Source of the DNA: an uncultured Elusimicrobia bacterium
GTDB taxonomy: Bacteria > Elusimicrobiota > Elusimicrobia > 2-01-FULL-59-12
Assembly (NCBI GenBank): GCA_964441955.1
Contig: CAYTWA010000002.1
Span: 137,170 to 169,169, forward strand
Length of the DNA: 32,000 bases
Direction of reading: 5' to 3'
Position numbers and translations under genes: made by a program. Below are positions 7,833 to 27,568 of this stretch, piece by piece (the first letter of the stretch is position 1; each line of letters opens with the position of its first letter). The notes beneath the pieces are model-generated. The model saw only the letters and a list, made by a program, of their open reading frames with translations, had not been told where the DNA came from and ran no database searches.

Positions 7833-7914
7833 CATGGTTTTACACTTTCGTTACAGGCTTGTGATGCGCACTTTACAGAGGGCCTTTAGACTCCTAGAGA
7901 GAGGTACAAACGCC

Positions 7915-9024: not shown

Positions 9025-9033
9025 TGGAGTGAT

Positions 9034-10518: not shown

Positions 10519-10521
10519 TTT

Positions 10522-12609: not shown

Positions 12610-12611
12610 TC

Positions 12612-14723
12612 ATGCCTAAAAAATGGTTTCTGATCATTTTGGCCATCGTGGTCATCCCCGTGACGATGACTTCATGGAAGGTGATTCAGTATGCCCGGGA
12701 ATCCAAAAGTCAGATTTACGAGCTCCACCGGCATATTGTAACGGCCTTGGCGCTCAATACGACCGCTTACTTCCAGCAGCTCAACATGCGCTTGGCCTTC
12801 GCGCCATTGTTGTCGCGTGCCAAAGGGTGGGGGGAACAAGTGGCGGTGCTCAATAACGCTTTGTTGTCAAATAGCGACTTTTCCTGCGTGGCCGTCATCG
12901 ATGCTTCCGGAAAGGAATTGGCCAAAGCCTTCGATATTAAAGCGCGGGGTTTCGCTCCGGCGCTAACCCGCGGAAACGATCCCTTTTTTCAAAAGGTGAG
13001 CCGCACGCGCAACGCCGATACGGGACCCGTTTATGAGCGCGACGGCATTTCCTATTTCGACGTTTTGTATCCGCTCGCCTCCGGGCAAATGTTGATGGTG
13101 GCGATTCGCTGGGAGGGCTTAAAAAAGGTGCTCTTCGACCAAAAAGTCGGACAAGAAGGCTACATCCGCCTGTTGGATGAAGAGGGCCGCATCGTCGGGG
13201 ATTCGCTCAACAGCCACGTGGGAAAGACGGTTTCTGATTGGTATTTTTTTCAAGATCGAAAAGAAAACGCAGCCCCTTGGTTCGGCGAATTCGACGATAC
13301 GCAAAAGGTCCCCTCTGTGGGGGCTGGGCAGTGGATCGCGGGTGCTGGGTGGTTTGTGCTTTCGGCGCAACCCCAATCGGAAGCTTATGCCAAAACGCGG
13401 GACTTGCGAAACAAAGCCTTCCTCTGGATGGCCGGCAGTTTCGTCGGGGTTTGTTTTTTTGGTTATTTTTGGGTCATGCACATCAGCCGCCCGATCACTC
13501 GCTTAGCGGCGGGTGTCACGAACGTGGCGCGAAGGCGCTTTGACCAGCACGTCCCGGAAGACTACGGCCTCGAAGAATTCCGCGCTTTAGGGCAGGCGTT
13601 TAACCGGATGATGACGGAACTTAAAAGCTACAACGACTTGCAGGTTGAAAAAATTATTGAAGAACAAACCACGAGCAAATCCCTTCTCTTTAACATCCGT
13701 GACGGCATCGTGATGATTAACGAAAAAAGCGAAATTCTTTTCGCCAATGACCCAGCCAAACAATGGACCAAAGACACCGCGGGCCGTGGAAAAGAGGACT
13801 TCAATAAATCGTGGGCTTCCTTACAAGAGTACCCGCCTTGGATGGACCTGTTGCAGCCCGTTTTAGATGGGGAAAAAGCTAGCTCTTCAGAAGAGTTCGA
13901 ATTTCCCGTGCAAGGCCGTCCCCGGTGGGCCCGCGTATTGGCCCAACCTGTTTCCACGGAATCTGGACGACGGTTGGGCATCATGGTGTTTATTCGAGAC
14001 ATTACCCAAGACAAAGAGTTGGACCGCATGAAAGAAGACTTTTTTAACGGGATCACGCATGACTTGCGTACGCCGCTGGCGGCGACGATCGGTTACTTGG
14101 GGTTGTCCGAGCTTCAGGTGCCCCAAGGCGAACAGGAACTGAGCAAATTGGTGAGTTCCGCGCGGCAATCGGCCAAGCGCGCGCTGGGGCTCGTAGAAAC
14201 CATTTTAAGTTTGGCGCGCTTGCAGGCCGGAAAACTGAACCTTAATTTTTCGCCCGTTCAGATCAAAGGGGTGTTGGAAAAAATTGCCGGGGATTTGCGT
14301 TTCCATGCGGAAGCCAAAAAAATCCACTTAAGCGCCGAATGTTTAGATGAGAAACTTTGGGTCAATGCCGATGCCGGTATGATCGACCGCGTGATCGAAA
14401 ACTTAACCGGAAACGCCATCAAATACACGATGGAAGGCGGGTGGGTGAAACTCTCCGCCAAGGCGGTGGATGAGGGCGTCATGATCTCCATCCAAGACAA
14501 TGGCCGAGGAATCCCTCCGGAGGCCATAAAAAAACTTTTTGGCAAATTCCAGCAAGTGAAAGCCGAAGACCGCGCTGTAGGATTCGGTATCGGGTTGTCC
14601 TTCTCGAAAGGGATTGTAGAAGCCCACGGGAGCGCCATCGATGTAGAGTCGGAAGTCGGTAAAGGGAGCCATTTTCACTTTACGTTGCAGCGCGCCCAAG
14701 CCCCCGCCGCCAAAGCCGCTTAG
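12612..14723 (+). CDS. sensor histidine kinase (periplasmic sensor domain, HAMP, PAS-like, HisKA, HATPase_c)
   Basis: Two TM segments (aa 5-22 and ~268-290) flank a ~245-aa periplasmic domain. Then come a HAMP-like segment (ISRPITRLAAGV...AFNRMMTELK) and the H-box FFNGITHDLRTPL (His483, nt 14058-14060). The N box LTGNAIKYT, G1 IQDNGRGIP and G2 GFGIGLS follow. Confidence 0.85.
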   Translation: MPKKWFLIILAIVVIPVTMTSWKVIQYARESKSQIYELHRHIVTALALNTTAYFQQLNMRLAFAPLLSRAKGWGEQVAVLNNALLSNSDFSCVAVIDASGKELAKAFDIKARGFAPALTRGNDPFFQKVSRTRNADTGPVYERDGISYFDVLYPLASGQMLMVAIRWEGLKKVLFDQKVGQEGYIRLLDEEGRIVGDSLNSHVGKTVSDWYFFQDRKENAAPWFGEFDDTQKVPSVGAGQWIAGAGWFVLSAQPQSEAYAKTRDLRNKAFLWMAGSFVGVCFFGYFWVMHISRPITRLAAGVTNVARRRFDQHVPEDYGLEEFRALGQAFNRMMTELKSYNDLQVEKIIEEQTTSKSLLFNIRDGIVMINEKSEILFANDPAKQWTKDTAGRGKEDFNKSWASLQEYPPWMDLLQPVLDGEKASSSEEFEFPVQGRPRWARVLAQPVSTESGRRLGIMVFIRDITQDKELDRMKEDFFNGITHDLRTPLAATIGYLGLSELQVPQGEQELSKLVSSARQSAKRALGLVETILSLARLQAGKLNLNFSPVQIKGVLEKIAGDLRFHAEAKKIHLSAECLDEKLWVNADAGMIDRVIENLTGNAIKYTMEGGWVKLSAKAVDEGVMISIQDNGRGIPPEAIKKLFGKFQQVKAEDRAVGFGIGLSFSKGIVEAHGSAIDVESEVGKGSHFHFTLQRAQAPAAKAA

Positions 14724-14957: not shown

Positions 14958-14981
14958 CGGCGAGACCTTAAACGGCAGAAA

Positions 14982-15369
14982 GGGCGGTAAGCCTTGACGA
15001 CGGTAAGCCTTGAAGGCAGCGAAAGGAAACAATTTTTTAGAAAGACACAAACCGGCGTGGCCTGATCAATGCGTTCCTCAATGCTAATTCCACTGGCTGC
15101 CGTTTAGGCATACCGCCCCCCAGGTTTACCGCCGTCTGGTGTTGGAGAGACTCGGCTACCTCGAAGGTCGAGACGGGGCGGTACGCCTTGACGACGGTAA
15201 GCCTTGAAGGCAGCGAAAGGAAACAATTTTTTAGAAAGACACAAACCGGCGTGGCCTGATCAATGCGTTCCTCAATGCTAATTCCACTGGCTGCCGTTTA
15301 GGCATACCGCCCCCCAGGTTTACCGCCGTCTGGTGTTGGAGAGACTCAGCTACCTCGAAGGTCGAGACG
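14982..15369. repeat. tandem direct duplication, 2 x 194 bp, each unit internally self-complementary
   Basis: Unit 1 (14982-15175) and unit 2 (15176-15369) differ at only two positions (14990 a vs 15184 c; 15154 g vs 15348 a). Within unit 1, 14983-14993 pairs with 15123-15133, 15001-15009 with 15107-15115, and 15015-15020 with 15096-15101. Confidence 0.9.
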
Positions 15370-15545: not shown

Positions 15546-15725
15546 AAGGCGTTCGGGGGGATAACAACGTTTAAGGACAGCAAAGCGTTCAGGGTCCTGA
15601 CGGCGTTCAGGGACACACAAGCGTTCAGATTCAAAACGTCGTTCTTCGTTGAACGCCGTCATGCCTCTGAACGCCTTTGCGTCCCCGAACGCCGTCAAGT
15701 CATTGAACGTCGTTGTAAGTTGTTT
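15546..15725. repeat. ten tandem 18-bp units forming a long imperfect palindrome (GCGTTCAG arm / CTGAACGC arm)
   Basis: Units read in register from 15546: AAGGCGTTCGGGGGGATA, ACAACGTTTAAGGACAGC, AAAGCGTTCAGGGTCCTG, ACGGCGTTCAGGGACACA, CAAGCGTTCAGATTCAAA, ACGTCGTTCTTCGTTGAA, CGCCGTCATGCCTCTGAA, CGCCTTTGCGTCCCCGAA, CGCCGTCAAGTCATTGAA, CGTCGTTGTAAGTTGTTT. The symmetry centre is near 15645-15650. Confidence 0.85.
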
Positions 15726-15771: not shown

Positions 15772-15800
15772 TTGGCCATTCCCTCGCGTTTGCCTATAGT
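15772..15800 (+). promoter_or_regulatory. candidate sigma70-type promoter of the giant ORF
   Basis: TTGGCC (15772-15777), a 17-nt spacer, then TATAGT (15795-15800), 37 nt upstream of ATG 15837. It is flanked by the direct repeat TCCCTCGCGT(T/C)TGC at 15780-15793 and 15800-15813. Confidence 0.35.
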
Positions 15801-15836: not shown

Positions 15837-18800
15837 ATGCACTTATTAACCCGCGTTCTTTCAACCGTTTTATCCTTCGCGCTCTTAATTCCATCCCTGG
15901 CACAACCGTCTTTGGCTTCTCCGGTCGCTCTTCCTTTTGACTTATCGCCACGCTTGGGCTTTATCACCGAGTCTTGGGCGAGTTCTTCTTCGGCCCCCCG
16001 TATCGTGATCATCCAAGACCTCCACCTGCACTACGAAACGCAGAAACGCATCATCAAAATTTTAGATCACCTCTTTACCCAGAAGATCGTCTCGGGCCCC
16101 GTGGCCGTGGAAGGGGTCGAAGGCGTCTACGACACCACCAAATTAGCCGTCTACCCCGCGGGCAAACTCAAAACAAAACTCGTGGACTATTTCCTTAAAA
16201 AAGGCGAGCTTTCGGGGGATGAGGCGTTCTCGATTCTCAAGGGTGACGGCAAGATTCTTTATGGGGTAGACAGCGCGTCTTATTACGGCCTTAACAAAGA
16301 CCTCTACAAAAAAACCCTGGCCAGCCGCCAAGCGTTGGAGGCCAAGCTCAAACCCATCCAAGAAGAACTTTCCTACTTAAAGAAGAAGCACCGCCGCGAC
16401 ACCTCGGTTTTAGGCCAAAACGTCAAACAGGCGGGTGAGATGGTGAACCTTTTGCAGCGCCTCTTGCATCAAGAAGTGACGTTGGAAGAAGCGCGGTATA
16501 TCGCCCAGCGTCTCCCGGCGTTCGTGGAGGTGTCCGAGAAACTTCTCTCATCTTCGTCCCCGCAGGTCGTAGGCGGGGACCCAGCGTCTTCAGATCTCGA
16601 AGAAACCATCCGCTCAGCGGTCGACTTCTACATCGTAGCCCTGATGCGCGACAAGCCGCTGGCGCAGAACACGGTGAAGCTGTTGAAGCGATTAAGCGAT
16701 GAAGCGAGTAAGCGAGTAAGTGATTCTCCTCACTCACCCACTCGCTCAATTGCTTATTCTCCATCACTCGCCCTTGTCACCGGAGGCTTCCACACCGCGG
16801 GCCTCACCCGCGCCTTTAAACAAGCCAACATCAGCTACACCGTCATCACCCCCCGCCTAGACAAAGCCCCCAGTGCGCAGTCCCGTGCGCTTTATGAAAA
16901 ACGACTTTCCAATATTTCTTTGGATCAGGCAGAGATGTCTTCAGATCTGCACCTTTCAGTAACAATGGTTGCTGTTCGTGCTAGTAAGGTTTTTGAATTG
17001 CTTCCTCTGGCTTGGGACAAGTTAACCGCAAAGCGAACACTCCGATTCCCTTCCATCCGGTTTCGTTCCCCGCGGCGTATGCGTACTCAGTTTGGTGGTA
17101 TCCCTTTTAACTCCTCGAACTCTGACAGAGAGGAAACGAAAAATTTGGCCGAGGTCCTTTCTCGGTGGTCTGGCTTAAAAGAAGATCTTCGCAATGGGAT
17201 CGCTCTGTATTTAGATAAAAAGAAATCCGAAGGTGTTTTTACGGCTGAAAAGGCTGCGGCATTGCTTGAAAAGACAATGACCCAGGTGGAGTTGTGGGCG
17301 ATCAGTTCCTCGATTGACCGGTTTACTCGTTTGGGCATCGTTCGGGCGATTGAAAATCAGCGCTGGGAAGACATCGTGACGGCCTTTAGTGATCAGCTGA
17401 AGTTTGGCACCGCGGGCCCTCGGTCAAAAGCGGCACTCACCACTGATGAATTGGTGTCACTTCGTGATCATGGTTTTACAGCGCCTATTTTAAAAGGATC
17501 CAACACCGTCAACAATGTGACGATCGCTCGTTTGACGACGGGTGTGGCGCGACACTTTAAGCGAACTCAAGTGGCGAAAGGGCGCACGACGCGCCCCCGT
17601 GTCTCCATTACATGGGACAGCCGCGTTCATGGGCGTGGTTTTGCCGATCTTGTGGCGGCCATTTTTATTCATGAGGGGTTGGATGTTTTCCTTTTCGATG
17701 TGAGTTCTCCAATGCCAGAAATGTCGTTTTCTGTGGCGGAACTCAAGTTGGACTTAGGGATCTTAATTAGCGCCTCTCATAATCCAGAAGCCTTCAATGG
17801 GTACAAAGTGAGCGACCCTGTGGGCGCTCAATTATCGCCAACACTGCGAAAAGCCATTGAAGCTTCCATCTATGGTGATCCTGCGAACGGCATTTTTCCC
17901 GTGACGTTGGAAGATGTCGCTTGGATTGTGAAGGCGTCCGCAAATCTTGCAGATCCTACGGGCGTTATTCGGCTACCCTCCAAAACCATGGGGCCTTTAA
18001 CATTCATGGCTTGGCAAGAAAACGGCAGGAAGGGTTTAACTTTTTTGGGACAGGAAGATCCCCCTGCAACTGCAAACGGTATTCCGGCCGTTCGCAATAT
18101 TCATGAAGCCCATCGCCGGCATGTGTTGGACCTTTTGTTGTTGCCAATTAACGTTATTCGTGAACATCTTGCGAATATGTATTCTTTGTATTCAGCCATG
18201 TATGGTAATGGGGAAAATACGTACAACCGCTTGCTGATGAATCCCGAAGGCCTGGGGTTGCCTTCCCATTCTGTAAAAGAGTTTGCCCGCTTGGATGGGC
18301 TTTTTCCTCTATTTGCAAACCACAAACCCAAAGCCTTGATCCCTGACCCTGGGAATTCGGCTGGGCAAGCCCATGCGTGGGCCGTGGTCATGCAGTCGCT
18401 TCGGGAAGAATTGGGTTCTGAAGAAAAAATGAAGCGAGTGCTTTTTCAGATTGGACAAAAGCGAGGGCTTGTAATGGGTACGGATCCCGACGCCGATCGC
18501 GCGGGTGTGGCTGTCCCCATACCAGCGGAGCAATTGTCCGATGACCCGTCCATTCAAGAAAAACAACTCGTCTTTTACGTGGTGCCGCCTCAATGGCGTG
18601 AGGAGGTGGATTTTGCGGCGCTGCGACTTCTTCCTGCAAACGATACCTGGGCGTTGATTACAAAATACCGCATCGATCGCCTTTCAGAGATTTTGACGTT
18701 TGATCAAAAGAAAAATCTGCACTTTTCGATCATTAAGACGCACGTCACAACGGATCAAATCAAAGCCCTTAAGGCCTATGCTGAGTCCAGAGGGTTTGCT

Positions 18801-21800
18801 CATATCGAAATTATTGAACCGTTCGTGGGGTTTTCGTTGGTGGCGGATGCTATTCGAGACGGATGGCGTCGTGGTGTCATCAATATCAGCGGACAAGAGG
18901 AAAGCGGGGGTTTTTCTATTGGAGGAGCGCCGCCGGTGATTTATGCGTTGCTTCACCTTTTTCAAAAAGATAATCAGCTTGGATTAGATTGGGATGAGGA
19001 GGAAAATTCTTTAATTAAAAAAAGTTCTCCCTCTTCGACTGATTCTGTGTTGTTATCAGACAAAGTGAGCTATTACGGATACTCGCAGCAAGAACTTACC
19101 GAAGCTTTAGGATATCTTCTAGATCAGAATATTCTAATGATAGATGGTGCCGGATATTATTCTTTGCGTCATGATTATCGAGGATTAAATCATGATGATT
19201 TTTGGGCGCGCGTAAATGGGTTTGTTGATGATGCTCCAGGATCGCGCCTCGGAAAACGCGGGCACACCATGGAAAAAGACGGTCTCATGGCGTTGGTGTT
19301 GCTGGCCGAAGTGGCTGCGTATGCGTCCAGCTTGGGGAAAACACTCAACCAGTATTTGTGGGATGAGCTCTATGCAAAGGTGGGGTACTTCTCAACTACC
19401 AATCAATCCAAAGAGTTTGCTTTTACTCAAGCCGGGGCAGCGGAAAAAATTAGGTATCTCCAAAGCGTTCTCGAGCATGCTCGCCGAGTGGGCAATGGCT
19501 GGAATCTCAGCATTGACCATAAATTGGTTGCTCGGGTTGAGATCTTTGTTCCTAAGGATCAAAAATATGCCGATTCCGAAAATTTCCCGGTCGAATCGTA
19601 TAAGGATTTGCTGCCACTTTTAAGCGATCCAGAGCTTCGAAACAATCCAGCCTTGCTCAAAAGTTTCTTCCCTGAAGAAGGAGTGCGTTTTTACTTCACC
19701 GATGGCAGTCATTTGACCGTTCGTCCTTCGGGAACCGAACCCAAGCTTCGCTTTTACGTTCAGTGGCTCGCCACCGACATCCAAGGTGACATGACGGAGG
19801 CCCAGCGATACCAAAAAGCCGACATCACCGCCTACGATGTGGCCATCGCCGCCAAATCCGTTTTGGGTGCAGCGCCAATAGCCCATTTAATGGCAAATGA
19901 GCCTATTAATTTGATCCATTTCAAGTCAGGCGCCGCCGATGGGCCGGCCCCGGAGAGCGGTTTGGTTCGAATCGAGGACATCATTAGGGCCGTAGTTTGG
20001 GACGAAATTCCTGGGGCAAAGAGGCTGGCTCATGGGCTTACGGGAAAGAAGCTCCGCCATTATGGGGCCGCGAGAGTTTTCGTTAATAATCTCCGTTCCA
20101 ATGACATCGTAATCGGAATCCCTCTGGAGGAAGCAGCAGGCGCTCGCGGCAGAGAAACGATTGTCGGAAAAGTTCGTTCTGTTGTTAGCACCGGCGACGA
20201 CCGACCCGGCGCTGTCATTGACTTTCGAACGGTATATCCTGAAGACGAACATCACTTTGCCTTCTACCGGCTCGCCTTTTGGGCGAATGAGATCGTTATT
20301 CCGCAGCCACACGTAAATCACCTGCTAAACAATCGACTAACGCCACAAGAGGCGCACAAAAAGTTAAGGGGTCGCAAAATTGTCCTAAGTGGTCATGGCC
20401 CTTTCACGCTGGCAGCGCTTGCCAACGCCTACCGAGAAGCGTTCCCAGAATTCCGCTCGGGATTTATTTCTGTTCTGGTCGATGGCAGGCAGCGCATCAC
20501 CGATCCCGAGGCCGATTTAACGCCGTATGAAACTTTTGAGTTGGCCAGTTTCGGGTCAGGCGCCGCAGACGGGCCGGCCCCACGCGAGCGTAGTCATGAC
20601 AAAGACGCCATCCTGGCTGATATCGCCCCGTATCTGGAGGCCGGCGTTCGACGCTACCTCGATGCGGAACACAAACTTGGTTACATCACTTCGTCAGAGC
20701 GAGTTGCACATGAACAAAAAACATTGAGCCGATTTTTAATGTTGTTTGGAGACCCAGGAATTGGCAATGAGGTGCGGCGTTTGATGGTCAAAGCCGTCGT
20801 AGAAAGGCGTTGGGAGGCTTTGGTTCATACTTTTGGCGTCCTTCTCGACCCCGTCATGCCCCATTCTGACCAGGAACTACTTTCACCTGAGCGAATAAGC
20901 CCTGTCATTCTGAAAGGGCTTATCCCACCGCTGACGTTGTTGCGCACTCGTATTTGGAGCTTTGTTATGTATTTGTGGCGTTTAATCTACCCTCCCCAAC
21001 ACTGGGAGAAAACAGTACATATCCCTTTTCAGTTGAAGATTGGAATTGCAGACCCTGGGATGGGGGGCGTTCCGGTTGTTCTCCGCGGTGAAGGAAAGCC
21101 TACGTTAGGGAATATCCTTGATGCGTTGCGTACTCACTATCCACTAGCCAAAAATATAAAGCTTGCAGCGTTTGTGGATGGTCAAATATCAACTACTGAT
21201 CGTAGAGCCAATTTAGGCCGCGCAAAAAAAATTGAGCTTGTATGGCACCCTAGCGGCGCCGCTGATGGGCCGGCCTCAGACGCGGGTAGTCATGACAATG
21301 ACGCCATCCCGGCCGATATCGCCTCTCATCTTGAGACCGGAATTCGAAATTATCTCGATGGGGAAGACGAACGTGGTTACATCATTTCATCAGAGCGAGT
21401 TGCATATGAACAAAAAACATTGAGCCGATTTTCAATGTTGTTTGGAGACCCAGGAATTGGCAATGAGGTGCGGCGTTTGATGGTCAAAGCCGTCGTAGAA
21501 AGGCGTTGGGAGGCTTTGGTTCATACTTTTGGCGTCCTTCTCGACCCCGTCATGCCCCAATCCGACAGCGAATCTCTATCCGCCCAACGTATTATTCCCG
21601 TAATTCAGCAGGGGCTTGCCTTGCCACCGACCATCCAGGGTCCCCATTGGGCTAGATTGGTTTCGTTGTCCGAGCAATTGTCCGCAGCGACAGGGCAGGC
21701 GAAAGGAACCGCGATTCGTTTGGATGGTACGGAGAGTCAACGGTTTACGATGCAGGATCTCTTGGATGCTTTTTGGGAGAAATTCCCGAATCTCCGAAAT

Positions 21801-22475
21801 CAGCGTTTAGCAGTTCAGGTATCCCCGACACCGATGTTTGGGACAAGGCTGATCTTGCATCCGGATGTGGAACTAACACAAGCCATTGACATTGAAATCA
21901 TCTTGCACTTAGAAGGTGTGGTCTACGTTAAATATAAGCGGCCTACATTGCTTGCTCGTTTGTTGAACTTTCTTACCATGTCTAGTAAAGGATTGGGCAG
22001 ATGGTTTTTGGGCGGAATTGTTTCAGCGCTTGTAGCCGCGGCCGGGCTTTTGTTAAGCCAAGCCCAAGGCATGGCACAGGCGACGGTCCCACTGAAACCC
22101 TTAACAGAAGCGGTTCAGCCTCATGCGCAAGCCGTTTTGAACGTGGTCGGGACGTCGTTAGATGTTCTTCTTCCAGTAGGGTTGGTGGTGTTGGGTTTAT
22201 GGTCAATGTTCCAAATCGGTCGGAGTGTATTGCGTGAGTTGGAGAGTCAGCGCGCGCTGGCCGTCCGTGCGGGTGCCCGTGAAAATCAGCTTAAGGCCCC
22301 CGGGTTGTTCTCCGCGTTTCAAGCCGCGATGCGTAAGCCTGCGGGGTATTTGCCTTCCATTGCGCTGTTGGGAGCTATTGCGCTTGGCGTCCCCGAGGCG
22401 GCGCGTCCGGAATTCCTAGCCAATAATCAAGTGGCCACGGCGACTCTGTTGGCCAGTTTTGCCGCCGCGGCTTAA
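15837..22475 (+). CDS. giant (2212 aa) exported, membrane-anchored mosaic protein with an alpha-D-phosphohexomutase core
   Basis: Single uninterrupted ORF. The signal peptide is MHLLTRVLSTVLSFALLIPSLAQPSLA. aa ~455-1345 carry all four phosphohexomutase loops: ISASHNPEAFNGYK (Ser647, nt 17775-17777), GTDPDADR (aa 881-888), GQEESGG (aa 1019-1025) and RPSGTEPKLR (aa 1296-1305). They also carry the family-typical leader ...RWEDIVTAFSDQLKFGTAGPR. aa 1364-2026 form three modules separated by SGAADGPA(P/S). The C-terminus has 3-4 hydrophobic segments (aa ~2056-2076, 2108-2126, 2172-2185). Confidence 0.85.
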   Translation: MHLLTRVLSTVLSFALLIPSLAQPSLASPVALPFDLSPRLGFITESWASSSSAPRIVIIQDLHLHYETQKRIIKILDHLFTQKIVSGPVAVEGVEGVYDTTKLAVYPAGKLKTKLVDYFLKKGELSGDEAFSILKGDGKILYGVDSASYYGLNKDLYKKTLASRQALEAKLKPIQEELSYLKKKHRRDTSVLGQNVKQAGEMVNLLQRLLHQEVTLEEARYIAQRLPAFVEVSEKLLSSSSPQVVGGDPASSDLEETIRSAVDFYIVALMRDKPLAQNTVKLLKRLSDEASKRVSDSPHSPTRSIAYSPSLALVTGGFHTAGLTRAFKQANISYTVITPRLDKAPSAQSRALYEKRLSNISLDQAEMSSDLHLSVTMVAVRASKVFELLPLAWDKLTAKRTLRFPSIRFRSPRRMRTQFGGIPFNSSNSDREETKNLAEVLSRWSGLKEDLRNGIALYLDKKKSEGVFTAEKAAALLEKTMTQVELWAISSSIDRFTRLGIVRAIENQRWEDIVTAFSDQLKFGTAGPRSKAALTTDELVSLRDHGFTAPILKGSNTVNNVTIARLTTGVARHFKRTQVAKGRTTRPRVSITWDSRVHGRGFADLVAAIFIHEGLDVFLFDVSSPMPEMSFSVAELKLDLGILISASHNPEAFNGYKVSDPVGAQLSPTLRKAIEASIYGDPANGIFPVTLEDVAWIVKASANLADPTGVIRLPSKTMGPLTFMAWQENGRKGLTFLGQEDPPATANGIPAVRNIHEAHRRHVLDLLLLPINVIREHLANMYSLYSAMYGNGENTYNRLLMNPEGLGLPSHSVKEFARLDGLFPLFANHKPKALIPDPGNSAGQAHAWAVVMQSLREELGSEEKMKRVLFQIGQKRGLVMGTDPDADRAGVAVPIPAEQLSDDPSIQEKQLVFYVVPPQWREEVDFAALRLLPANDTWALITKYRIDRLSEILTFDQKKNLHFSIIKTHVTTDQIKALKAYAESRGFAHIEIIEPFVGFSLVADAIRDGWRRGVINISGQEESGGFSIGGAPPVIYALLHLFQKDNQLGLDWDEEENSLIKKSSPSSTDSVLLSDKVSYYGYSQQELTEALGYLLDQNILMIDGAGYYSLRHDYRGLNHDDFWARVNGFVDDAPGSRLGKRGHTMEKDGLMALVLLAEVAAYASSLGKTLNQYLWDELYAKVGYFSTTNQSKEFAFTQAGAAEKIRYLQSVLEHARRVGNGWNLSIDHKLVARVEIFVPKDQKYADSENFPVESYKDLLPLLSDPELRNNPALLKSFFPEEGVRFYFTDGSHLTVRPSGTEPKLRFYVQWLATDIQGDMTEAQRYQKADITAYDVAIAAKSVLGAAPIAHLMANEPINLIHFKSGAADGPAPESGLVRIEDIIRAVVWDEIPGAKRLAHGLTGKKLRHYGAARVFVNNLRSNDIVIGIPLEEAAGARGRETIVGKVRSVVSTGDDRPGAVIDFRTVYPEDEHHFAFYRLAFWANEIVIPQPHVNHLLNNRLTPQEAHKKLRGRKIVLSGHGPFTLAALANAYREAFPEFRSGFISVLVDGRQRITDPEADLTPYETFELASFGSGAADGPAPRERSHDKDAILADIAPYLEAGVRRYLDAEHKLGYITSSERVAHEQKTLSRFLMLFGDPGIGNEVRRLMVKAVVERRWEALVHTFGVLLDPVMPHSDQELLSPERISPVILKGLIPPLTLLRTRIWSFVMYLWRLIYPPQHWEKTVHIPFQLKIGIADPGMGGVPVVLRGEGKPTLGNILDALRTHYPLAKNIKLAAFVDGQISTTDRRANLGRAKKIELVWHPSGAADGPASDAGSHDNDAIPADIASHLETGIRNYLDGEDERGYIISSERVAYEQKTLSRFSMLFGDPGIGNEVRRLMVKAVVERRWEALVHTFGVLLDPVMPQSDSESLSAQRIIPVIQQGLALPPTIQGPHWARLVSLSEQLSAATGQAKGTAIRLDGTESQRFTMQDLLDAFWEKFPNLRNQRLAVQVSPTPMFGTRLILHPDVELTQAIDIEIILHLEGVVYVKYKRPTLLARLLNFLTMSSKGLGRWFLGGIVSALVAAAGLLLSQAQGMAQATVPLKPLTEAVQPHAQAVLNVVGTSLDVLLPVGLVVLGLWSMFQIGRSVLRELESQRALAVRAGARENQLKAPGLFSAFQAAMRKPAGYLPSIALLGAIALGVPEAARPEFLANNQVATATLLASFAAAA
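16685..16772. repeat. palindromic element built from 8-nt tandem units, embedded in-frame in the giant ORF
   Basis: The left arm is five tandem octamers GAAGCGAT TAAGCGAT GAAGCGAG TAAGCGAG TAAGTGAT (16685-16724). It is followed by its approximate reverse complement (TCACTCACCCACTCGCTCAATTGCTTA...). It shares AGCGAGTAAGT and ACTCGCTCAAT(T/C)GCT with the element at 22910-22990. Confidence 0.7.
20556..21914 (+). repeat. internal tandem duplication of a ~232-codon module within the giant ORF
   Basis: Module starts at 20556 and 21252 (offset 696 nt) both encode SGAADGPA...ERVA(H/Y)EQKTLSRF(L/S)MLFGDPGIGNEVRRLMVKAVVERRWEALVHTFGVLLDPVMP. Block 20694-20863 versus 21390-21559 differs at only 2 of 170 nt, while the flanks are much more diverged. 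Confidence 0.9.
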
Positions 22476-22503
22476 GCATTTCCGGTTTCGAGAGGCGGCT
22501 TAC

Positions 22504-22614
22504 GGCATAACAAAAAGAAAATAGCACCAAAGAATCAGCGTTTAAAGGCAAAAAGTCGTCACTTTATGTCTTTTTGCCTTTAGCGATTTGGTGCTGTTTT
22601 CTTTTTGTTATGTC
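22504..22614 (+). terminator. long AU-rich hairpin 29 nt after the giant ORF stop; possible terminator or inserted palindromic element
   Basis: The left arm GGCATAACAAAAAGAAAATAGCACCAAA...AAAGGCAAAAAG (22504-22555) pairs with CTTTTTGCCTTT...TTTGGTGCTGTTTTCTTTTTGTTATGTC (22570-22614). This gives a 28-bp outer stem with 2 mismatches, an internal loop, a 12-bp perfect inner stem and a 14-nt loop. There is no clean U-tract after the stem. Confidence 0.4.
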
Positions 22615-22795
22615 GTTTAACAGCCACCCCCGCAGGCCCGACACCGCCCCCGTTCGTCCGGCTTTCAATAAAGTCACCTCAACTCCCACTGCCTCTGCCG
22701 TTGCTTAAGGCTCGGGAGTTGTTCAGGCGTTTCCCCACACAGCCGGGATCGGTGTCGGTATCGGGGAGGATCGATATCGGAGCTTAAAGAACTTG

Positions 22796-22825
22796 TTGAC
22801 AAGATGTTGCACCTGCGACCATAAT
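22796..22825 (+). promoter_or_regulatory. sigma70-type promoter driving the riboswitch leader
   Basis: TTGACA (22796-22801), an 18-nt spacer, then CATAAT (22820-22825), placed ~25 nt upstream of the riboswitch P1 stem. Confidence 0.6.
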
Positions 22826-22849
22826 CCGTCCGCTTCATTTGTTCTTTCA

Positions 22850-23045
22850 AACGCGACGGGTAGAGGAATCTCGTGAAAATCGAGAGCTGCCCCGCAACGG
22901 TGAATGGTGGTGAGTAAGCCAGTAAGCGAGTGAGCGAGTAAGTAAGGAGTGACTTTCCATAATCGCTTACTCGCTCAATCGCTCACTCACTTCTTTAAGT
23001 CCGGTCTACTGTCCGTCGCCATCCTAAAACTTCGAGGGAAGGAGC
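22850..23045 (+). promoter_or_regulatory. cobalamin (B12) riboswitch
   Basis: GGAAUCUCGUGAAAAUCGAGAGCUGCCCCGCAACGGUGAA (22865-22904) matches the conserved cobalamin-riboswitch core as I recall it (GGAAnCnGGUGnnAAUCCnGnGCUGnCCCCGCAACUGUAA; compare the E. coli btuB leader). There is a B12-box-like AAGUCCGGUCUACUGUCC at 22997-23014. The P1 candidate is GCGACGG 22853-22859 / CCGUCGC 23013-23019. The SD GGAAGGAG precedes ATG 23051. Confidence 0.75.
22910..22990. repeat. second copy of the octamer-array palindromic element, forming the variable arm of the riboswitch
   Basis: GTGAGTAAGCCAGTAAGCGAGTGAGCG (22910-22936) pairs with CGCTTACTCGCTCAATCGCTCACTCAC (22964-22990): 27 positions with 5 mismatches and a 27-nt loop. 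The unit GAGT(A/G)AGC is the same as in the element at 16685-16772. Confidence 0.7.
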
Positions 23046-23050
23046 CTTAC

Positions 23051-23575
23051 ATGTTTAACTTACGTTTCTGGACTTTGACCGGAGTCGTTGCTCTCGCCGC
23101 TGCACTGCGTCTAATGCCTCATCCTTGGAATGCGACGCCTATTGCCGCGATGGCACTTTTTGCAGGTGTGCATTTCTCCAATCGAAAAATAGCCTTTTTG
23201 GTGCCTCTCTTGGCCATGTTCATCTCGGATCTGGTCCTGGGTTGGCATTCATTGGTTGGGGTGGTGTATGGGTGCTTTGCCGTCACCGTGTGGCTTGGCC
23301 AGTGGGTACGGCGCGACCTTTCAGTCCTCCGTGTGGCATCCGCGAGTTTAGGCGCTTCCATGCTTTTTTTCCTTGTGACGAACTTCGCGGTGTGGCTGAC
23401 AAGCGGTCTTTACAGCCAAACCGGCGCCGGGCTGTCGGCTTGTTTCGTGGCGGCATCGCCATTTTTTCGTCATACGCTACTTGGCGACCTGGCCTACACG
23501 GCGCTTTTCTTCGGGGCTTTCCATTTGTCCCAGCTGCGTTTTCCCGTTTTGCGGGAAAGCGCTGTTTCTCTTTAA
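23051..23575 (+). CDS. small 6-TM membrane protein, riboswitch-controlled; candidate corrinoid transporter (resembles the family annotated DUF6580 putative transport protein)
   Basis: ATG 23051 sits 6 nt after GGAAGGAG. The 174 aa contain six hydrophobic segments, and the N-terminal LMPHPWNATPIAAMALFAG is as I recall for that family. The track ORF start at 22949 lies inside the riboswitch and is not coding. Confidence 0.65.
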   Translation: MFNLRFWTLTGVVALAAALRLMPHPWNATPIAAMALFAGVHFSNRKIAFLVPLLAMFISDLVLGWHSLVGVVYGCFAVTVWLGQWVRRDLSVLRVASASLGASMLFFLVTNFAVWLTSGLYSQTGAGLSACFVAASPFFRHTLLGDLAYTALFFGAFHLSQLRFPVLRESAVSL

Positions 23576-23588
23576 GAGCGAGGGCGTC

Positions 23589-25532
23589 ATGAACACACGC
23601 GCTCTTTTGGGGATATTTTGTCTCTGCACACCCTTTGCGGCGGCCGATCAGGACGTTTTCCTCTCCTTAACACGTGCCCCTTTGCCTATGGATACCCTCC
23701 CGACGTCCGTCGAGTCCGTTGGGCCAACGGAATTTGCGCGTTGGAATGCGCAAACCGCCGGTGAAGCGGTTTCACGCCTGACCAGCATCCAGGTTCAGCC
23801 GGTGGGTTCCCTGGGAGCTCTCCAGACGATTCGGCTGCGTGGTTCAAACACCAACCAAAACCTCGTCATGATCGATGGACGTCCGATTGGAAGTGTCGCC
23901 TTTGCCTCTTCTCAGGATTTAACGGAAATACCCATAGAGGCGATTGAGCGTATCGAAGTGATTCGAGGAGGTGCCTCATCGCTTTACGGGCCCAATGCGT
24001 TGGCCGGTGTCATCCATATCATCACCCGGCGCGGCACCAACGAAAAAACGAGTGGTTCCTTAGGCTACGACTACGGGTCTTATGGGCGCAATATTTTCCG
24101 CGGCTCGGTCGGGTCAAAAAAAGGGCCATTCGATTATTTCTTGTATGGAAATAAACAAAACGAGAGCGGTTTTCGGGATAATTCCGAAGCCGCAACCTTA
24201 AACGTCGGAACCCACCTGGGTCTTTCGCTGGGAAAAGCCGGGGGGGTAGAGCTCAGCGGTGCGCTGTATCAAGCCGACCAGGGAATTCCTGGGCAATTTT
24301 TCCCGGCTATTCCAACGAATCGCTTCGATACAAACCGCGAACGCGCGGCGGTTTCGTCCCAGGCCAACCAGACCACACAAACCCAGTCACTGCGAGCCTC
24401 TCATGAAATCGGCTTGCCAAGGGATTCGAAGCTGACCACTTCCGTTTGGGGGTCCGAGCGCAGAGTCATCTATAAAGACCGGCCCAGCTTCGTAAATACG
24501 GACCGCACAGAATGGTCGAAAGGAAGCGAGGTGAAGGTGAATGCGCCCTTGGGGTTGACGTTCGGCGGAAGTTTCCTTCAAGACAAGGAAGACAGCATCG
24601 ATCACATCACGCCGAGGAGCTCCTTTACGCGAAAGGCCGAAAACGTGGGGTTTTTTATTGAAGAAAAGTTTTATTGGAAGCCGTTGACGGTAATCCCCAG
24701 TGGTCGTTTTGACCGGCATAGCCAGTTTGGCTGGTCTAAGAACCCACGCGTGCAAACGATTGTGGATGCCACCGACAACCTACGTATCTCCTGCTCTGCC
24801 GCCAGGTCGTTTAGGGCTCCGACGATAGATGAACTCTATTATCCATTCACAAACTTTGGTTTTGGGTTTAGCTATCGAGGCAATCCGAGCCTGCAGCCCG
24901 AAACGGCGTGGAGCTATGACGGTGGGTTTGAACTTTACAACGATGCCGTAAGTTTTAAAGCCACCTATTTCCGTACCAACGTAAGCAACTTAATCCAAAG
25001 TACGCTGGATAATGCTTCAACAGTGATCAATATCGGCAATGCTCGCCGTCAAGGCGCAGAACTTCAGTTGGATAAAACGGACGGCTCAATCCTTCTGAAT
25101 GCATTGTTTGGAATCCTCCCTTCGATGGGGGAGTCAAAAAATAAAATTACGGACTTTATTCGAACCCACTCACGCGACACGGTGAATTACACGTATTTGG
25201 ATAATCGCGGTATCCCTCCGGGCTTTACGGATGATGTGGAGTTACGCTACAGCCCGCGGCATACGGTCAACTGGGTCGCGACGTTTTCTCCCTGTTCGCA
25301 TTTTGACTGGGACAACGCGGTTCGCTACGTGGACGCGCGCTTCTCAGGTAATAATGAAACGGGAACGAAGCTGGGTTCGATGGTGCTCTGGGATACGAAA
25401 TTGACCAAACGCTGGAAACAACTCGAAGCTTACCTCAGCGTTCGCGATGTGACCAATCGCCGCTACGAAGAGCAAGCGGGTTATCCGTTGCCTGGCCGTA
25501 CGTTCTTGGGTGGAGTTGCCTGGAAGTACTAA
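23589..25532 (+). CDS. TonB-dependent receptor, BtuB-like (paralog 1)
   Basis: Signal peptide MNTRALLGIFCLCTPFAAA, TonB-box-like DVFLSLTR, and plug motifs IEVIRGGASSLYGPNALAGVIHIITRRG. The barrel motif is FRAPTIDELY and the terminal strand is aromatic (GGVAWKY). The gene is co-transcribed behind the B12 riboswitch. Confidence 0.9.
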   Translation: MNTRALLGIFCLCTPFAAADQDVFLSLTRAPLPMDTLPTSVESVGPTEFARWNAQTAGEAVSRLTSIQVQPVGSLGALQTIRLRGSNTNQNLVMIDGRPIGSVAFASSQDLTEIPIEAIERIEVIRGGASSLYGPNALAGVIHIITRRGTNEKTSGSLGYDYGSYGRNIFRGSVGSKKGPFDYFLYGNKQNESGFRDNSEAATLNVGTHLGLSLGKAGGVELSGALYQADQGIPGQFFPAIPTNRFDTNRERAAVSSQANQTTQTQSLRASHEIGLPRDSKLTTSVWGSERRVIYKDRPSFVNTDRTEWSKGSEVKVNAPLGLTFGGSFLQDKEDSIDHITPRSSFTRKAENVGFFIEEKFYWKPLTVIPSGRFDRHSQFGWSKNPRVQTIVDATDNLRISCSAARSFRAPTIDELYYPFTNFGFGFSYRGNPSLQPETAWSYDGGFELYNDAVSFKATYFRTNVSNLIQSTLDNASTVINIGNARRQGAELQLDKTDGSILLNALFGILPSMGESKNKITDFIRTHSRDTVNYTYLDNRGIPPGFTDDVELRYSPRHTVNWVATFSPCSHFDWDNAVRYVDARFSGNNETGTKLGSMVLWDTKLTKRWKQLEAYLSVRDVTNRRYEEQAGYPLPGRTFLGGVAWKY

Positions 25533-25555
25533 AAACACCTTGATACACTGGCACG

Positions 25556-27568
25556 GTGAATAAGCGCGCCTTAGCCTTTTCTTTCCTTATCCTGATGGGT
25601 AGTGATGCCTGGGCGGACCCGAGCGCTTCCGAACCGGTGGGCCCGCCTTTGTCGTATCCAGTCGCGCCTGTTTCTACCATCACCGCTTCTGTCGCGTTAA
25701 CCGGTGAAACGCTTTCCGCGCCGGCTCCCCGGGCCATGACGGATTCTTCAGACGAAAATGTAATTATCTCGCTCACCCGCTCTGCCCAAGATTCAAAATC
25801 GCTTCCAACGACCGCGGACGTAATTTCGGCGAATGAAATTCGGCGTTTGCGCGTGCGGACCGCGGGAGATGTGCTGGCGCTCTTGACACCGTTTCGTTTC
25901 CATACGCAAGGCCACCTGGCAAGTCCTCAAAAGGCGAGCCTTCGCGGGGCGCCTTCTGCCCAAACGCTCGTCCTCGTGGATGGGCGGCCTTGGGGCGGTG
26001 TGGCATTTAACGGAAGCCAAGACCTGGCCGAGATTAGCGTGCAGCAAATAGACCGTATCGAAATTGTCCGAAGCGATCAGTCTGTCCTTTATGGTCCAAA
26101 TGCCTCAGGCGGCGTGATCAACATCATCTCGGCACGCGCGTCGCATGAGGGCTTGCCGACCAGTCACGTTGGCGTGGAAGGCAATTCCTTAGGCGGGCCT
26201 ACGTATCGATTGGACGCAGGGTCCCGTTATGGGCCTGTTGATTTCTTTTTCTTTGGGAATCAGTCCCGTGAAAGCGGTTTTCGAATCAATCAGGATGCGA
26301 AAATCTACACCCTTGGAGGCAACGTAGGGCTGGCCATGGGGAAAGCGGGAAAACTTCTTTTTGACGCCTCTTCGTATCAAGCGCGGGCGGGTATTCCGGG
26401 CCGGCTAAACCCTGATTTACCGGTCAGCCATTATGACGGCAATAGTGAACGGATAGGGCCCACGCCAGGGGCAAGGCAAACCACGGGGAGTGACGCGCTC
26501 CGTGCGTCATATCTTTTAGCGTTTTCGAAGGATGCGATGCTCAGCGTTCGAGCCTTCGGCTCGCAACGACATGTCGATTATCGTAATTTGGATTTTCCTC
26601 GAATCTCCGAACGGCATGAGTTTAACCGCGGCTTGGAAGCGCAGCTAAATCTTCCGCGCGGTCTATTAGCTGGGGGGACGTTTCTGCGGGATCGTCTGGA
26701 TAACCAAGACCATACGACACCGCAAAAAAATGTGACGGCCCATGTGGAAAATTGGGGATGGTTCTTACAGGAAACGTGGTCCTGGTCGCGTTTTACGCTG
26801 ATCCCCGGCGTTCGGTTTAGCAACAACAGTCAATTTGGTCCTTCGACGGACCCCAACATCAAAGGTTGGGTTGAAGTGTCCGACAGGCTGCGTTTCTCCG
26901 GTTCCGCTGGGCGCGCGTTTCGAGCCCCTACCTTAGATGATGTGTTTACGCCGCTAACGTTTTTGGGAGATGGGTTCAGCATTCAGGGCAACGCGGCGCT
27001 CCGTCCCGAAAGAATATGGACTTACGACGCCGGGTTTGAGCTTCATCGTGATTCCGCCAGCGTCAAAGCGACCTATTTCCGTGCCATCGCGTCCGATTTG
27101 ATCCAAACCACGGGGAATGTGGCGGATGCTCCCGTGAATGTCGATCGCGTGCGTCGCCAGGGAGGCGAGATCGCCTTTAACTATTCGCGAAGCCCTCGGT
27201 TTTTAAACCGTGTCACCTATCAATACTTGGAGAACCATGGAACTCCGCCGGGGTTTTCACGTCCTGTGACTTTGCGTTTAAGCCCGCGACATCAAGCCTC
27301 CTATCACGCACAATTTCTTCTGGGTAAAAAATTTACGATGACTCATATTGTGCGCTACAGGAGTTCCTCATATGAAAATGATAATCGAACGGGATCCAAA
27401 ATGTCCTCCGTGGCCACTTGGGACGCGCGATTTCAATATCCGGTTCGTCAGATGGATTTTTATCTCGGGGTAGATAACATTCTGGGGAAACGCTTCCGTG
27501 AACGCGGCGGGTATCCGCTTCCGGGCCGGATGGTCTATGGCGGCGTGGACTTGCGTTTATGGGGATAG
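25556..27568 (+). CDS. TonB-dependent receptor, BtuB-like (paralog 2)
   Basis: GTG start and signal peptide MNKRALAFSFLILMGSDAWA. NVIISLTR, IEIVRSDQSVLYGPNASGGVINIISARA and FRAPTLDDVF are colinear with paralog 1. Confidence 0.9.
   Translation: MNKRALAFSFLILMGSDAWADPSASEPVGPPLSYPVAPVSTITASVALTGETLSAPAPRAMTDSSDENVIISLTRSAQDSKSLPTTADVISANEIRRLRVRTAGDVLALLTPFRFHTQGHLASPQKASLRGAPSAQTLVLVDGRPWGGVAFNGSQDLAEISVQQIDRIEIVRSDQSVLYGPNASGGVINIISARASHEGLPTSHVGVEGNSLGGPTYRLDAGSRYGPVDFFFFGNQSRESGFRINQDAKIYTLGGNVGLAMGKAGKLLFDASSYQARAGIPGRLNPDLPVSHYDGNSERIGPTPGARQTTGSDALRASYLLAFSKDAMLSVRAFGSQRHVDYRNLDFPRISERHEFNRGLEAQLNLPRGLLAGGTFLRDRLDNQDHTTPQKNVTAHVENWGWFLQETWSWSRFTLIPGVRFSNNSQFGPSTDPNIKGWVEVSDRLRFSGSAGRAFRAPTLDDVFTPLTFLGDGFSIQGNAALRPERIWTYDAGFELHRDSASVKATYFRAIASDLIQTTGNVADAPVNVDRVRRQGGEIAFNYSRSPRFLNRVTYQYLENHGTPPGFSRPVTLRLSPRHQASYHAQFLLGKKFTMTHIVRYRSSSYENDNRTGSKMSSVATWDARFQYPVRQMDFYLGVDNILGKRFRERGGYPLPGRMVYGGVDLRLWG

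Follow-up and report, generated by a model that had tools for sequence, protein, structure and literature searches.

The question raised by this locus is why a phosphohexomutase, an enzyme of cytoplasmic type, should be built into a protein of 2,212 amino acids (aa) that begins with a signal peptide and ends in hydrophobic helices, and on which side of the inner membrane it would then work. The gene lies at 15837-22475 in the window, which is the whole stretch of 32,000 nucleotides (nt) of contig CAYTWA010000002.1, from an uncultured Elusimicrobia bacterium, that was analyzed here; all coordinates refer to it. Sequence comparison places the encoded protein (hereafter the query) in a family of giant proteins, very large and as yet without a name, whose members share an N-terminal domain (N-domain) and carry swapped enzymes. 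Within a protein class that was noticed only recently and is still unexplained, it is a compact member with features not yet described. Concerning its site of action, we favor, with slightly less than even confidence, a modular protein that is exported by Sec and tethered to the inner membrane, with the mutase acting on hexose phosphates outside the cytoplasm.

The open reading frame (ORF) runs over 6.6 kb of the plus strand without interruption, and its product of 2,212 aa is without any cysteine. At ~52% GC, 2,212 codons in a row without a stop would not arise by chance (the estimate is roughly e^-100), and NCBI has the identical protein from a contig of 540 kb. The window stems from a metagenome-type assembly and the related locus L082 is broken by frameshifts, as might be expected if the gene were an assembly chimera or a pseudogene joining ordinary genes. 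Such an origin is extremely improbable. The order of the N-domain followed by phosphoglucomutase (PGM) recurs in independent assemblies, namely in protein P0195 (one high-scoring segment pair, query positions 249-1161) and at L082, which excludes a chimeric assembly, and the same plan is common to thousands of relatives. Another relative, P0054, has the signal peptide, the N-domain, the beta-grasp unit with its junction, and the C-terminal anchor in common with the query. With regard to the chimeric or split gene against which the original prediction had wanted a safeguard, the assembled sequence shows a single intact frame, with a domain order repeated in P0195 and L082. The gene and its predicted parts are as follows:

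15837..22475, plus strand: giant gene, 2,212 codons and a stop codon, ATG start, intact ORF
15837..15917, plus strand: Sec-type signal peptide, aa 1-27 (inspection; family-wide pattern)
15924..16961, plus strand: family-defining N-domain, aa ~30-375, ~345 aa long (alignment, profile, AlphaFold model, Foldseek)
17154..19874, plus strand: long-form alpha-D-phosphohexomutase unit, aa ~440-1346 (Pfam, NCBIfam, homologue alignment)
within 17154..19874, plus strand: native helical N-terminal leader of the mutase, aa ~440-577 (homologue comparison)
17769..17786, plus strand: phosphoserine loop SASHNP, aa 645-650, with S647 as the predicted phospho-acceptor (motif)
18483..18500, plus strand: metal-binding loop DPDADR, aa 883-888 (motif)
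18891..18911, plus strand: sugar-binding loop GQEESGG, aa 1019-1025 (motif)
19722..19751, plus strand: phosphate-binding loop RPSGTEPKLR, aa 1296-1305 (motif)
19926..20555, plus strand: module 1, aa 1364-1573, with the junction SGAADGPAP, an N-part and a ubiquitin-like segment at aa ~1496-1572 (alignment)
20556..21251, plus strand: module 2, aa 1574-1805, with the junction, a degenerate copy of the PGM leader and a beta-grasp at aa ~1722-1805 (alignment, model)
21252..21926, plus strand: module 3, aa 1806-2030, built on the plan of module 2 (alignment)
21993..22220, plus strand: two hydrophobic helices, aa ~2053-2074 and ~2103-2128, the putative membrane anchor (hydrophobicity)
22221..22472, plus strand: Arg-rich stretch, third hydrophobic helix at aa ~2169-2185 and the end ...FAAAA-COOH (hydrophobicity, sequence)

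Every part of the architecture that had been read from the translation was recovered by translation motifs, Pfam and hydrophobicity, with two or three C-terminal hydrophobic helices counted in the query in place of the three to four given earlier.

The family is defined by the N-domain. The full-length query retrieved 51 other proteins, 1.2-3.7 thousand amino acids (kaa) long, from Elusimicrobia and Omnitrophica, all of which match the query only over aa 4-373 and always at their own N-termini, with middles that differ. A profile made from 20 N-domains matched 9,953 of 1.84 billion cluster representatives at E<=1e-3 and 6,767 at E<=1e-30, and the N-domain started at residue ~30-80 in nearly all of the matches. 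The members are mostly 1-6 kaa long, reaching 6.4 kaa in the top 150 profile matches. A scan of species-representative genomes confirmed 400 loci, mostly in Omnitrophota and the rest in Elusimicrobiota, FCPU426 and Firestonebacteria, and several genomes hold more than one family locus. The closest relatives of the query, P0004 and P0011, come from metagenome-assembled genomes of Elusimicrobia. The family plan consists of a signal peptide, a TIKI/ChaN/Ere-like N-domain with an acid-His/Glu/Arg/His set, a variable cargo slot, and the terminus [S/A][A/L/V]-COOH. In the relatives the slot is filled by enzymes of sugar-phosphate and glycogen metabolism (PGM/PMM, PGI, GlpX-type FBPase, TIM with GHMP kinase, iPGM, PGK, PPDK, UDP-glucose dehydrogenase, and glycogen synthase) and by other proteins (CofD/YvcK, methyltransferases, GNATs, ABC1 kinases, and M48 peptidases); the cargo-slot enzymes are of cytoplasmic ancestry. 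The original prediction could not match the protein to any described family. That statement no longer stands, both because the N-domain profile finds a family of about 10,000 clusters and because PGM/PMM in long Omnitrophota proteins with signal peptides and/or transmembrane (TM) helices was already present in preprints of 2023 and 2026 (West-Roberts et al., 2023; bioRxiv 10.64898/2026.06.07.730766). In three close relatives, P0002, P0003 and P0011, an HExxH motif (HEMTH, HELSH, HELGH) lies between the N-domain and the cargo at aa ~500-650; hydrophobic segments follow it directly in P0002 and P0003, and in P0011 the TM helices closest to it come ~190 aa later. This region may be an extra metalloprotease-like module, and it is absent from the query protein.

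The N-terminus of the query reads MHLLTR-VLSTVLSFALLIPSLA-QPSLAS and is organized into a basic n-region, a 16-aa h-region and a c-region of the SLA/SLAS type with small residues at -3/-1. It is without Cys and is thus not a lipoprotein signal. The h-region does not reach the hydrophobicity of the true TM helices, which is what a cleavable signal would show. A signal-like N-terminus of this kind was observed in 167 of 189 family representatives versus 1 of 114 long PGMs classed as lacking a signal peptide. Inspection of the n/h/c organization and its conservation in relatives therefore agree with the classical signal peptide (aa 1-27) first proposed.

Behind the signal, the N-domain carries the motifs QDLH (aa 60), VEGVEG (aa 91) and GGFH (aa 316), and the residues Q60, D61, H63, Q69, E92, G93, R271 and G316-G-F-H319 are invariant in the alignment of 20 sequences. 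An AlphaFold model (mean predicted local distance difference test, pLDDT, 86.9; predicted TM-score, pTM, 0.84) places the invariant residues just after predicted beta-strands, on both sides of a large helical insertion. In a Foldseek search of the PDB with this model, 3b55 (Bcr135) ranked 1, 2g5g (ChaN) 5, 2qgm 9 and 5t09 (HopBA1) 12; 2qgm we take to be Bcr136, a relative of Bcr135. The structures 3b55/Bcr135, 2g5g/ChaN and 5t09/HopBA1 belong to the TIKI superfamily and have a 2His/2Glu catalytic set (PMC6254334). No curated Pfam model matched the query N-domain at threshold, and PF04187 (ChaN) gave no match to it at E<=1; sub-threshold PF04187 matches were found in 8 of the 20 family members, with a best E of 8.8e-4. 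These comparisons support the view that the N-domain is a remote relative of the TIKI/ChaN/erythromycin-esterase superfamily, outside any curated family. A ChaN/TraB/Tiki-type fold had been guessed at low confidence before, and it has gained backing from the weak PF04187 matches, the model with a pLDDT of 86.9 and the TIKI-type PDB matches. Much as in the TIKI/TraB-PrgY/ChaN/erythromycin-esterase superfamily, the domain would have a parallel beta-sheet core flanked by helices according to the model, and its acid-x-His, Glu and GxxH residues at predicted strand ends may correspond to those of Bcr135/RRSP. It differs in the large helical insertion, in Asp in place of the first Glu, and in the lack of a Pfam threshold match.

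The cargo of the query is a long-form phosphohexomutase. Pfam detected PF02878 (PGM_PMM_I; E=5e-23, aa 556-678), which was also aligned to GlmM 6gyz, and PF00408 (PGM_PMM_IV; E=1.8e-7). PF02880 (domain III) gave E=0.02 only, under the cut-off, with the GQEESGG motif present, and PF02879 (domain II) was not detected in the query but was detected in long-PGM homologues, with DPDADR in the expected order. NCBIfam gave only partial GlmM-type matches. A PGM core with every catalytic loop had been predicted, and the four loops were indeed found in the expected order. Over aa ~440-1346 the query aligns end to end with a "long PGM" lineage, the nearest full-length homologues of which are ~47-52% identical; identity to the broader long-PGM family is ~30%, with all four loops kept. 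The wider set of ~740-aa relatives comes from Planctomycetota, Gemmatimonadota, Latescibacteria and other phyla. The helical leader at aa ~440-577 is native to this lineage; therefore, the cargo is a cytoplasm-type enzyme captured whole.

A stand-alone homologue, P0192 (908 aa, 47% identical end to end), has no signal peptide, occurs on seven contigs, and is flanked by genes on the opposite strand. Stand-alone long PGMs of this kind (700-920 aa) resemble the query in their end-to-end homology including the leader and in the four catalytic loops, whereas they have no signal peptide and contain 0.5-1% Cys; the unit of the query is internal to a 2,212-aa protein with 0 Cys. A further protein, P0190, has a signal peptide and a 66%-identical PGM without the N-domain or a TM helix, and ends in AAAA. 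P0191 (906 aa, 52% identical) was also considered as a stand-alone cytoplasmic homologue and rejected, as tblastn located the N-domain immediately upstream, in different frames; P0191 thus belongs to a giant gene with frameshifts in a nanopore assembly, which leaves P0192 as the valid stand-alone control. As a fused gene, P0191 gives independent support for the order of N-domain and PGM. At locus L082 (4217-8721 of ENA ERZ26871208 contig_194069), in a nanopore assembly, the orthologous gene with N-domain and PGM is split over three frames, and the pieces were called as separate proteins of 269, 333 and 906 aa. Database entries of the giant family can thus masquerade as stand-alone enzymes.

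Three modules follow the mutase, and the conserved SGAADGPA junction on which they had first been recognized was found at aa 1364, 1574 and 1806. The first 300 nt of modules 2 and 3 are 90% identical in DNA (~130 residues), and these ~130 residues are homologous to the mutase's own leader, with GxxxYLD, RWE and PVILKG kept and FGTAGxR lost. By this alignment, the starts of modules 2 and 3 are degenerate partial duplications of the mutase leader. The ~80-residue end segment aligns across modules 1-3 and with P0054. The model of module 2 (pLDDT 82.6 overall, 85-92 in residues 149-232) contains a beta-beta-alpha-beta-beta unit, and a Foldseek search of the PDB placed ubiquitin, Caldiarchaeum ubiquitin, Hub1, SUMO and Atg8/GABARAP on top, with a probability of ~1 and target-normalized TM-scores (TMt) of 0.6-0.67. 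Each module is thus predicted to end in a ubiquitin-like beta-grasp domain. The junction xSG-AADGPAP comes after the last beta-strand, at the position of ubiquitin's tail (LRGG). The junction peptide is identical in the three copies, the first two of which differ at two synonymous DNA positions only, while the DNA flanking them is down to 75% identity; the counterpart in P0054 is AAGAADGIPAP. Among the relatives, the modules were found in P0054 only. A homologue search with modules 1-3 alone returned nothing, not even the query itself, so that they are either lineage-specific or were missed by the word index. The beta-beta-alpha-beta-beta fold is predicted to be common to these modules and to ubiquitin, ThiS/MoaD and Atg8. 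The beta-grasp domains of the query differ from ubiquitin and ThiS/MoaD in being internal repeated spacers, in having the tail xSG-AADGPAP and not GG-COOH, and in having no partners; no E1, JAB or sulfur-transfer partners were found among the genes of the window. In our view these domains would serve as spacers, or possibly mark processing sites, and do not make up a modifier system.

The C-terminus obeys a short rule. In 15 of 16 close relatives inspected the protein ends in xAA- or xSA-COOH, the exception being P0057, a 417-aa fragment, and 130 of 189 family representatives end in [S/A][A/L/V]-COOH, most commonly SL, AA, SV and SA. Long PGMs without a signal peptide end mostly in RS, RT or PR. 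The Omnitrophota subset has a conserved ~40-aa tail, ...LLxxMPIxPFDxxxQLxxRRKVMWSV. This longer motif was rejected as a family-wide feature, as a hidden Markov model of the Omnitrophota tails scores neither Elusimicrobial tails nor the query; therefore, only the terminal dipeptide rule is claimed for the whole family. Tail-specific (Prc/Ctp) and ClpXP-type proteases prefer non-polar C-terminal tails much like these. By this analogy, a protease link of the [S/A][A/L/V] tails is a lead only.

On which side of the membrane the body lies is answered in opposite ways by the signal peptide and by the positive-inside rule. The absence of Cys in 2,212 aa contrasts with ~20 residues expected from the 0.93% mean of the window's non-envelope proteins (Poisson P~1e-9), and mean Cys is 0.37% in the family versus 1.03% in long PGMs without a signal peptide. 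The query has no TM helix between the signal and aa 2053, and in 135 of 188 representatives the N-domain is not followed by any strong TM helix, which places N-domain and cargo in one compartment. Several observations weigh against an exported body. In the query and ten relatives, the C-terminal helix pair is bordered on its outer sides by basic residues and connected by a neutral loop, which by the positive-inside rule gives an in-out-in hairpin and a cytoplasmic body. The cargo of some relatives uses ATP, NAD or nucleotide sugars (PGK, PPDK, UDP-glucose dehydrogenase, GHMP kinase, glycogen synthase), and this counts against export because the substrates would be lacking in the periplasm; in some relatives, for example P0025 with PPDK, a strong TM helix lies between the N-domain and such cargo. 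The mutase requires a phosphorylated active-site serine and a bisphosphate cofactor, the supply of which is uncertain outside the cell, and no sugar-phosphate transporter was found among the genes of the window. The assignment of the N-domain is affected too, since its Foldseek matches are individually weak (E 0.05-1.3) and its sequence profile returned only coiled-coil noise and no TIKI structure from the PDB sequences. The original prediction had placed the protein behind a signal peptide. The signal-like N-terminus, the lack of Cys and the relatives without any other TM helix are in line with this export, whereas the C-terminal charge pattern is not. Judged from these sequence features, the body of the protein is somewhat more probably extracytoplasmic than cytoplasmic.

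In the exported, membrane-tethered form that we favor, Sec would translocate the unfolded protein, the signal peptide would be cleaved, and the body would fold outside the cytoplasm, held on the membrane by the C-terminal helices. In the periplasm or at the cell surface, the mutase might interconvert scavenged hexose 1- and 6-phosphates (of the glucose, mannose or glucosamine series) before uptake, alongside PGI, FBPase, TIM and similar activities provided by paralogous family members. The N-domain and the C-terminal tail would be common handles for maturation, turnover or anchoring and would take no part in the sugar chemistry. A wider form of this proposal, which we regard as doubtful, makes the family a general modular export system for cytoplasm-type sugar-phosphate and glycogen enzymes in Omnitrophota, Elusimicrobiota and allied phyla. 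The signal with the TIKI-like domain and the tail would then be universal handles between which any enzyme fits, in the query the ubiquitin-like domains with their SG|AADGPAP tails would mark processing sites, and the whole would amount to a hard-wired extracytoplasmic carbohydrate-phosphate pathway that is periplasmic, surface-located or host-facing.

The same protein could also be a cytoplasmic scaffold, pinned by its hydrophobic N-terminus and C-terminal helices to the inner face of the membrane, where the mutase would work on ordinary cytoplasmic hexose phosphates within a membrane-bound metabolic assembly. The in-out-in charge pattern of the query and its 10 close relatives and the ATP- and NAD-dependent cargo would fit such an arrangement. 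In addition, sugar modules in TM proteins without a signal peptide have been interpreted as compatible with a cytoplasmic face (bioRxiv 10.64898/2026.06.07.730766), and West-Roberts et al. (2023) warn that a missed TM helix could mislocalize such domains. We nevertheless consider this arrangement unlikely, as the basic n-region, the short and moderately hydrophobic h-region and the AxA-type sites suggest a cleavable signal that would place the rest outside; the helix-free stretch up to aa 2053, the complete lack of Cys and the majority of relatives without any TM helix after the signal point the same way. The junctions suggest yet another role, that of a processed polyprotein or effector-delivery protein with a MARTX-like logic, in which the N-domain or a tail-specific protease would cut at ...SG|AADGPAP and free the mutase and the modules, perhaps for delivery into a host or prey cell or onto its surface. 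TIKI-fold enzymes do include proteases such as RRSP, an effector within a MARTX toxin (PMC6254334). The junction peptide is strictly conserved with synonymous DNA changes only, between flanks at 75% DNA identity, and has its counterpart in P0054. In the model it occupies the place of ubiquitin's C-terminal tail, each copy following a ubiquitin-like domain or a beta-strand. Family ends such as IWAAA and LWSA are like the tails favored by tail-specific proteases, and there are predators and symbionts among the host phyla. Even so, processing of this kind is distinctly unlikely, with the junction and beta-grasp modules found only in the query and P0054, and with a cargo of housekeeping enzymes in place of toxins; MARTX repeats and a cysteine protease domain are both absent from the Pfam results, and no adjacent secretion genes lie in the window. 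It is very unlikely that the mutase domain is a non-catalytic surface decoration serving in sugar-phosphate or glycan binding or in adhesion. Giant proteins of these phyla are widely proposed as adhesins, and PGM domains II and III are too diverged for confident Pfam detection; against this, the four catalytic loops are kept at identities of only ~47-52% and ~30% to homologues, and the degenerate leader copies in modules 2 and 3, from which FGTAGxR is gone, illustrate what loss of function looks like in this protein.

Cytoplasm-type enzymes in long proteins of related bacteria have been reported before. TIM, PGI, FBPase, PGM/PMM, aldolase and PPDK have been noted in giant Omnitrophota proteins, within parts predicted to be extracellular (West-Roberts et al., 2023, bioRxiv 10.1101/2023.11.21.568195). 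PGM/PMM and starch-synthase domains form a "sugar metabolism module" in 916 long Omnitrophota proteins, and DeepTMHMM assigned a signal peptide together with TM helices to 39% of long Omnitrophota proteins and a signal peptide only to 9% (bioRxiv 10.64898/2026.06.07.730766). Like the query, these giant proteins ("Archaeovorins" and related ones) place cytoplasm-type enzymes in long signal-peptide or TM proteins that are often predicted to be extracellular. The query does not belong to the Archaeovorin type as delimited by a length of >30 kaa, many TM helices, and SecA-DEAD and/or C39/S8 peptidase domains: it is 2.2 kaa long in place of >10-30 kaa, has 2-3 TM helices, and lacks SecA-DEAD, C39 and dockerin domains by Pfam. 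The embedded glycolytic-type enzyme is the only trait that the two have in common. Nothing is said in either preprint about a TIKI-like N-domain, about modules of ubiquitin-like type, about a rule for the C-terminus or about depletion of cysteine. Among toxins, RRSP is a TIKI-fold enzyme within a giant modular exported protein, the MARTX toxin (PMC6254334); autoprocessing toxins of this type have glycine-rich N- and C-terminal repeats and a cysteine protease domain, neither of which was detected by Pfam in the query. Chlamydia trachomatis secretes the PGM CT295, which converts Glc1P to the importable Glc6P outside the bacterium (PMC9251005). This is similar to the mechanism proposed here in that a housekeeping PGM is exported from the bacterial cytoplasm and acts in an external compartment. 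Unlike the query, CT295 has the usual size of a PGM and carries a type 3 secretion signal, without a Sec signal, a giant fusion or a membrane anchor, and homology between the two is claimed only at the superfamily level.

If the body is outside the cytoplasm, thousands of relatives would put enzymes of central carbon metabolism (mutases, isomerases, phosphatases and even kinases) into the periplasm or on the surface. The carriers are poorly understood, often ultra-small and host-dependent bacteria, and models of their nutrition and of host or prey interaction would change. Compared with both preprints, the new handles are a family-retrieving N-domain (about 10,000 clusters), the C-terminal rule, the cysteine depletion, and a compact member of 2.2 kaa. 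With a predicted enzyme in this compact protein and a stand-alone cytoplasmic homologue as control, the inside or outside question becomes directly testable.

The DNA around and within the gene contains several repeat elements and signals:

14977..15364, no strand assigned: 194-nt unit in 2 tandem copies, 98% identical (repeat search)
15568..15715, no strand assigned: CGTTCA/TGAACG mirrored array, 59-nt arms, 78% complementary (repeat search)
15772..15800, plus strand: sigma-70-like promoter match TTGGCC-17-TATAGT, 37 nt upstream of the ATG (consensus match)
16674..16760, plus strand: in-frame palindromic element with 8-nt periodicity (GAGTAAGC-like), aa ~280-308 (repeat search)
22502..22616, plus strand: long, nearly perfect hairpin, -67.4 kcal/mol, z = -12.9, 27 nt after the stop codon

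The two copies of the 194-nt repeat, each with internal inverted repeats, lie upstream of the giant gene, in an intergenic region of 1.1 kb, and Rfam gave no match to this region at gathering thresholds. The mirrored array, ~120 nt upstream of the start codon, consists of four CGTTCA(GGG) at ~18-nt spacing followed by about four mirrored TGAACG(CC), and this imperfect inverted repeat could be a multi-site operator. The hairpin behind the gene could be a terminator or stabilizer, and the giant gene appears to be monocistronic. Within the gene, the palindromic element sits in a variable loop of the N-domain, and one of its arms is an imperfect 8-nt x5 array with 84% matches, which makes up the internal short-period repeat. 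Odd low-complexity inserts such as QDAGRGTQDAGRETQDAGR occupy the same loop in P0004, P0005, P0006 and P0011. The repeat element of the query and these inserts at the same loop suggest that the loop may tolerate in-frame insertion of repeat elements.

The same 8-nt-periodic palindrome family occurs twice in the window, at 16674-16760 in the gene and at 22904-22993 in a riboswitch region, and GAGTAAGCGAGTAAG has 9 matches at <=3 mismatches versus 0.4 expected. The riboswitch is a cobalamin aptamer (RF00174) at 22822-22945 on the plus strand (40 bits, E 6e-7), and it is followed by genes for a DUF6580 protein (22949-23575) and for two TonB-dependent receptors (23481-27568). The second palindrome overlaps the aptamer's 3' end, continues just beyond it across the start region (AAGGAG/GTG) of the DUF6580 ORF, and looks like a stem that would sequester the ribosome-binding site. 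The upstream repeat arrays, the downstream hairpin and the internal palindromic element noted in the original prediction are thus real, and its further claim of a contingency or accessory surface locus is not borne out: the neighbors of relatives are unrelated housekeeping genes with no conserved neighborhood found, the internal 8-nt repeat is imperfect, and the downstream copy lies at a cobalamin riboswitch. A phase-variable contingency locus in particular was rejected, as there is no perfect simple-sequence repeat and only the imperfect 8-nt x5 array is present inside the gene.

Upstream of the repeats, a co-directional cluster on the plus strand (6882-14723) codes for a TraF_2-like outer-membrane protein, a TPR and LysM protein, a FliG-domain protein of 494 aa whose N-terminus is hydrophobic, MotA, two MotB/OmpA proteins and a Cache-HAMP-PAS histidine kinase. 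Flagellar genes apart from these were not found in the window. A Zorya system was considered for this cluster and rejected, as PADLOC gave only generic MotB (ZorB) matches and no ZorA. The cluster encodes a stator-like machine, and it is probably unrelated to the giant gene because relatives of the latter have no conserved neighborhood.

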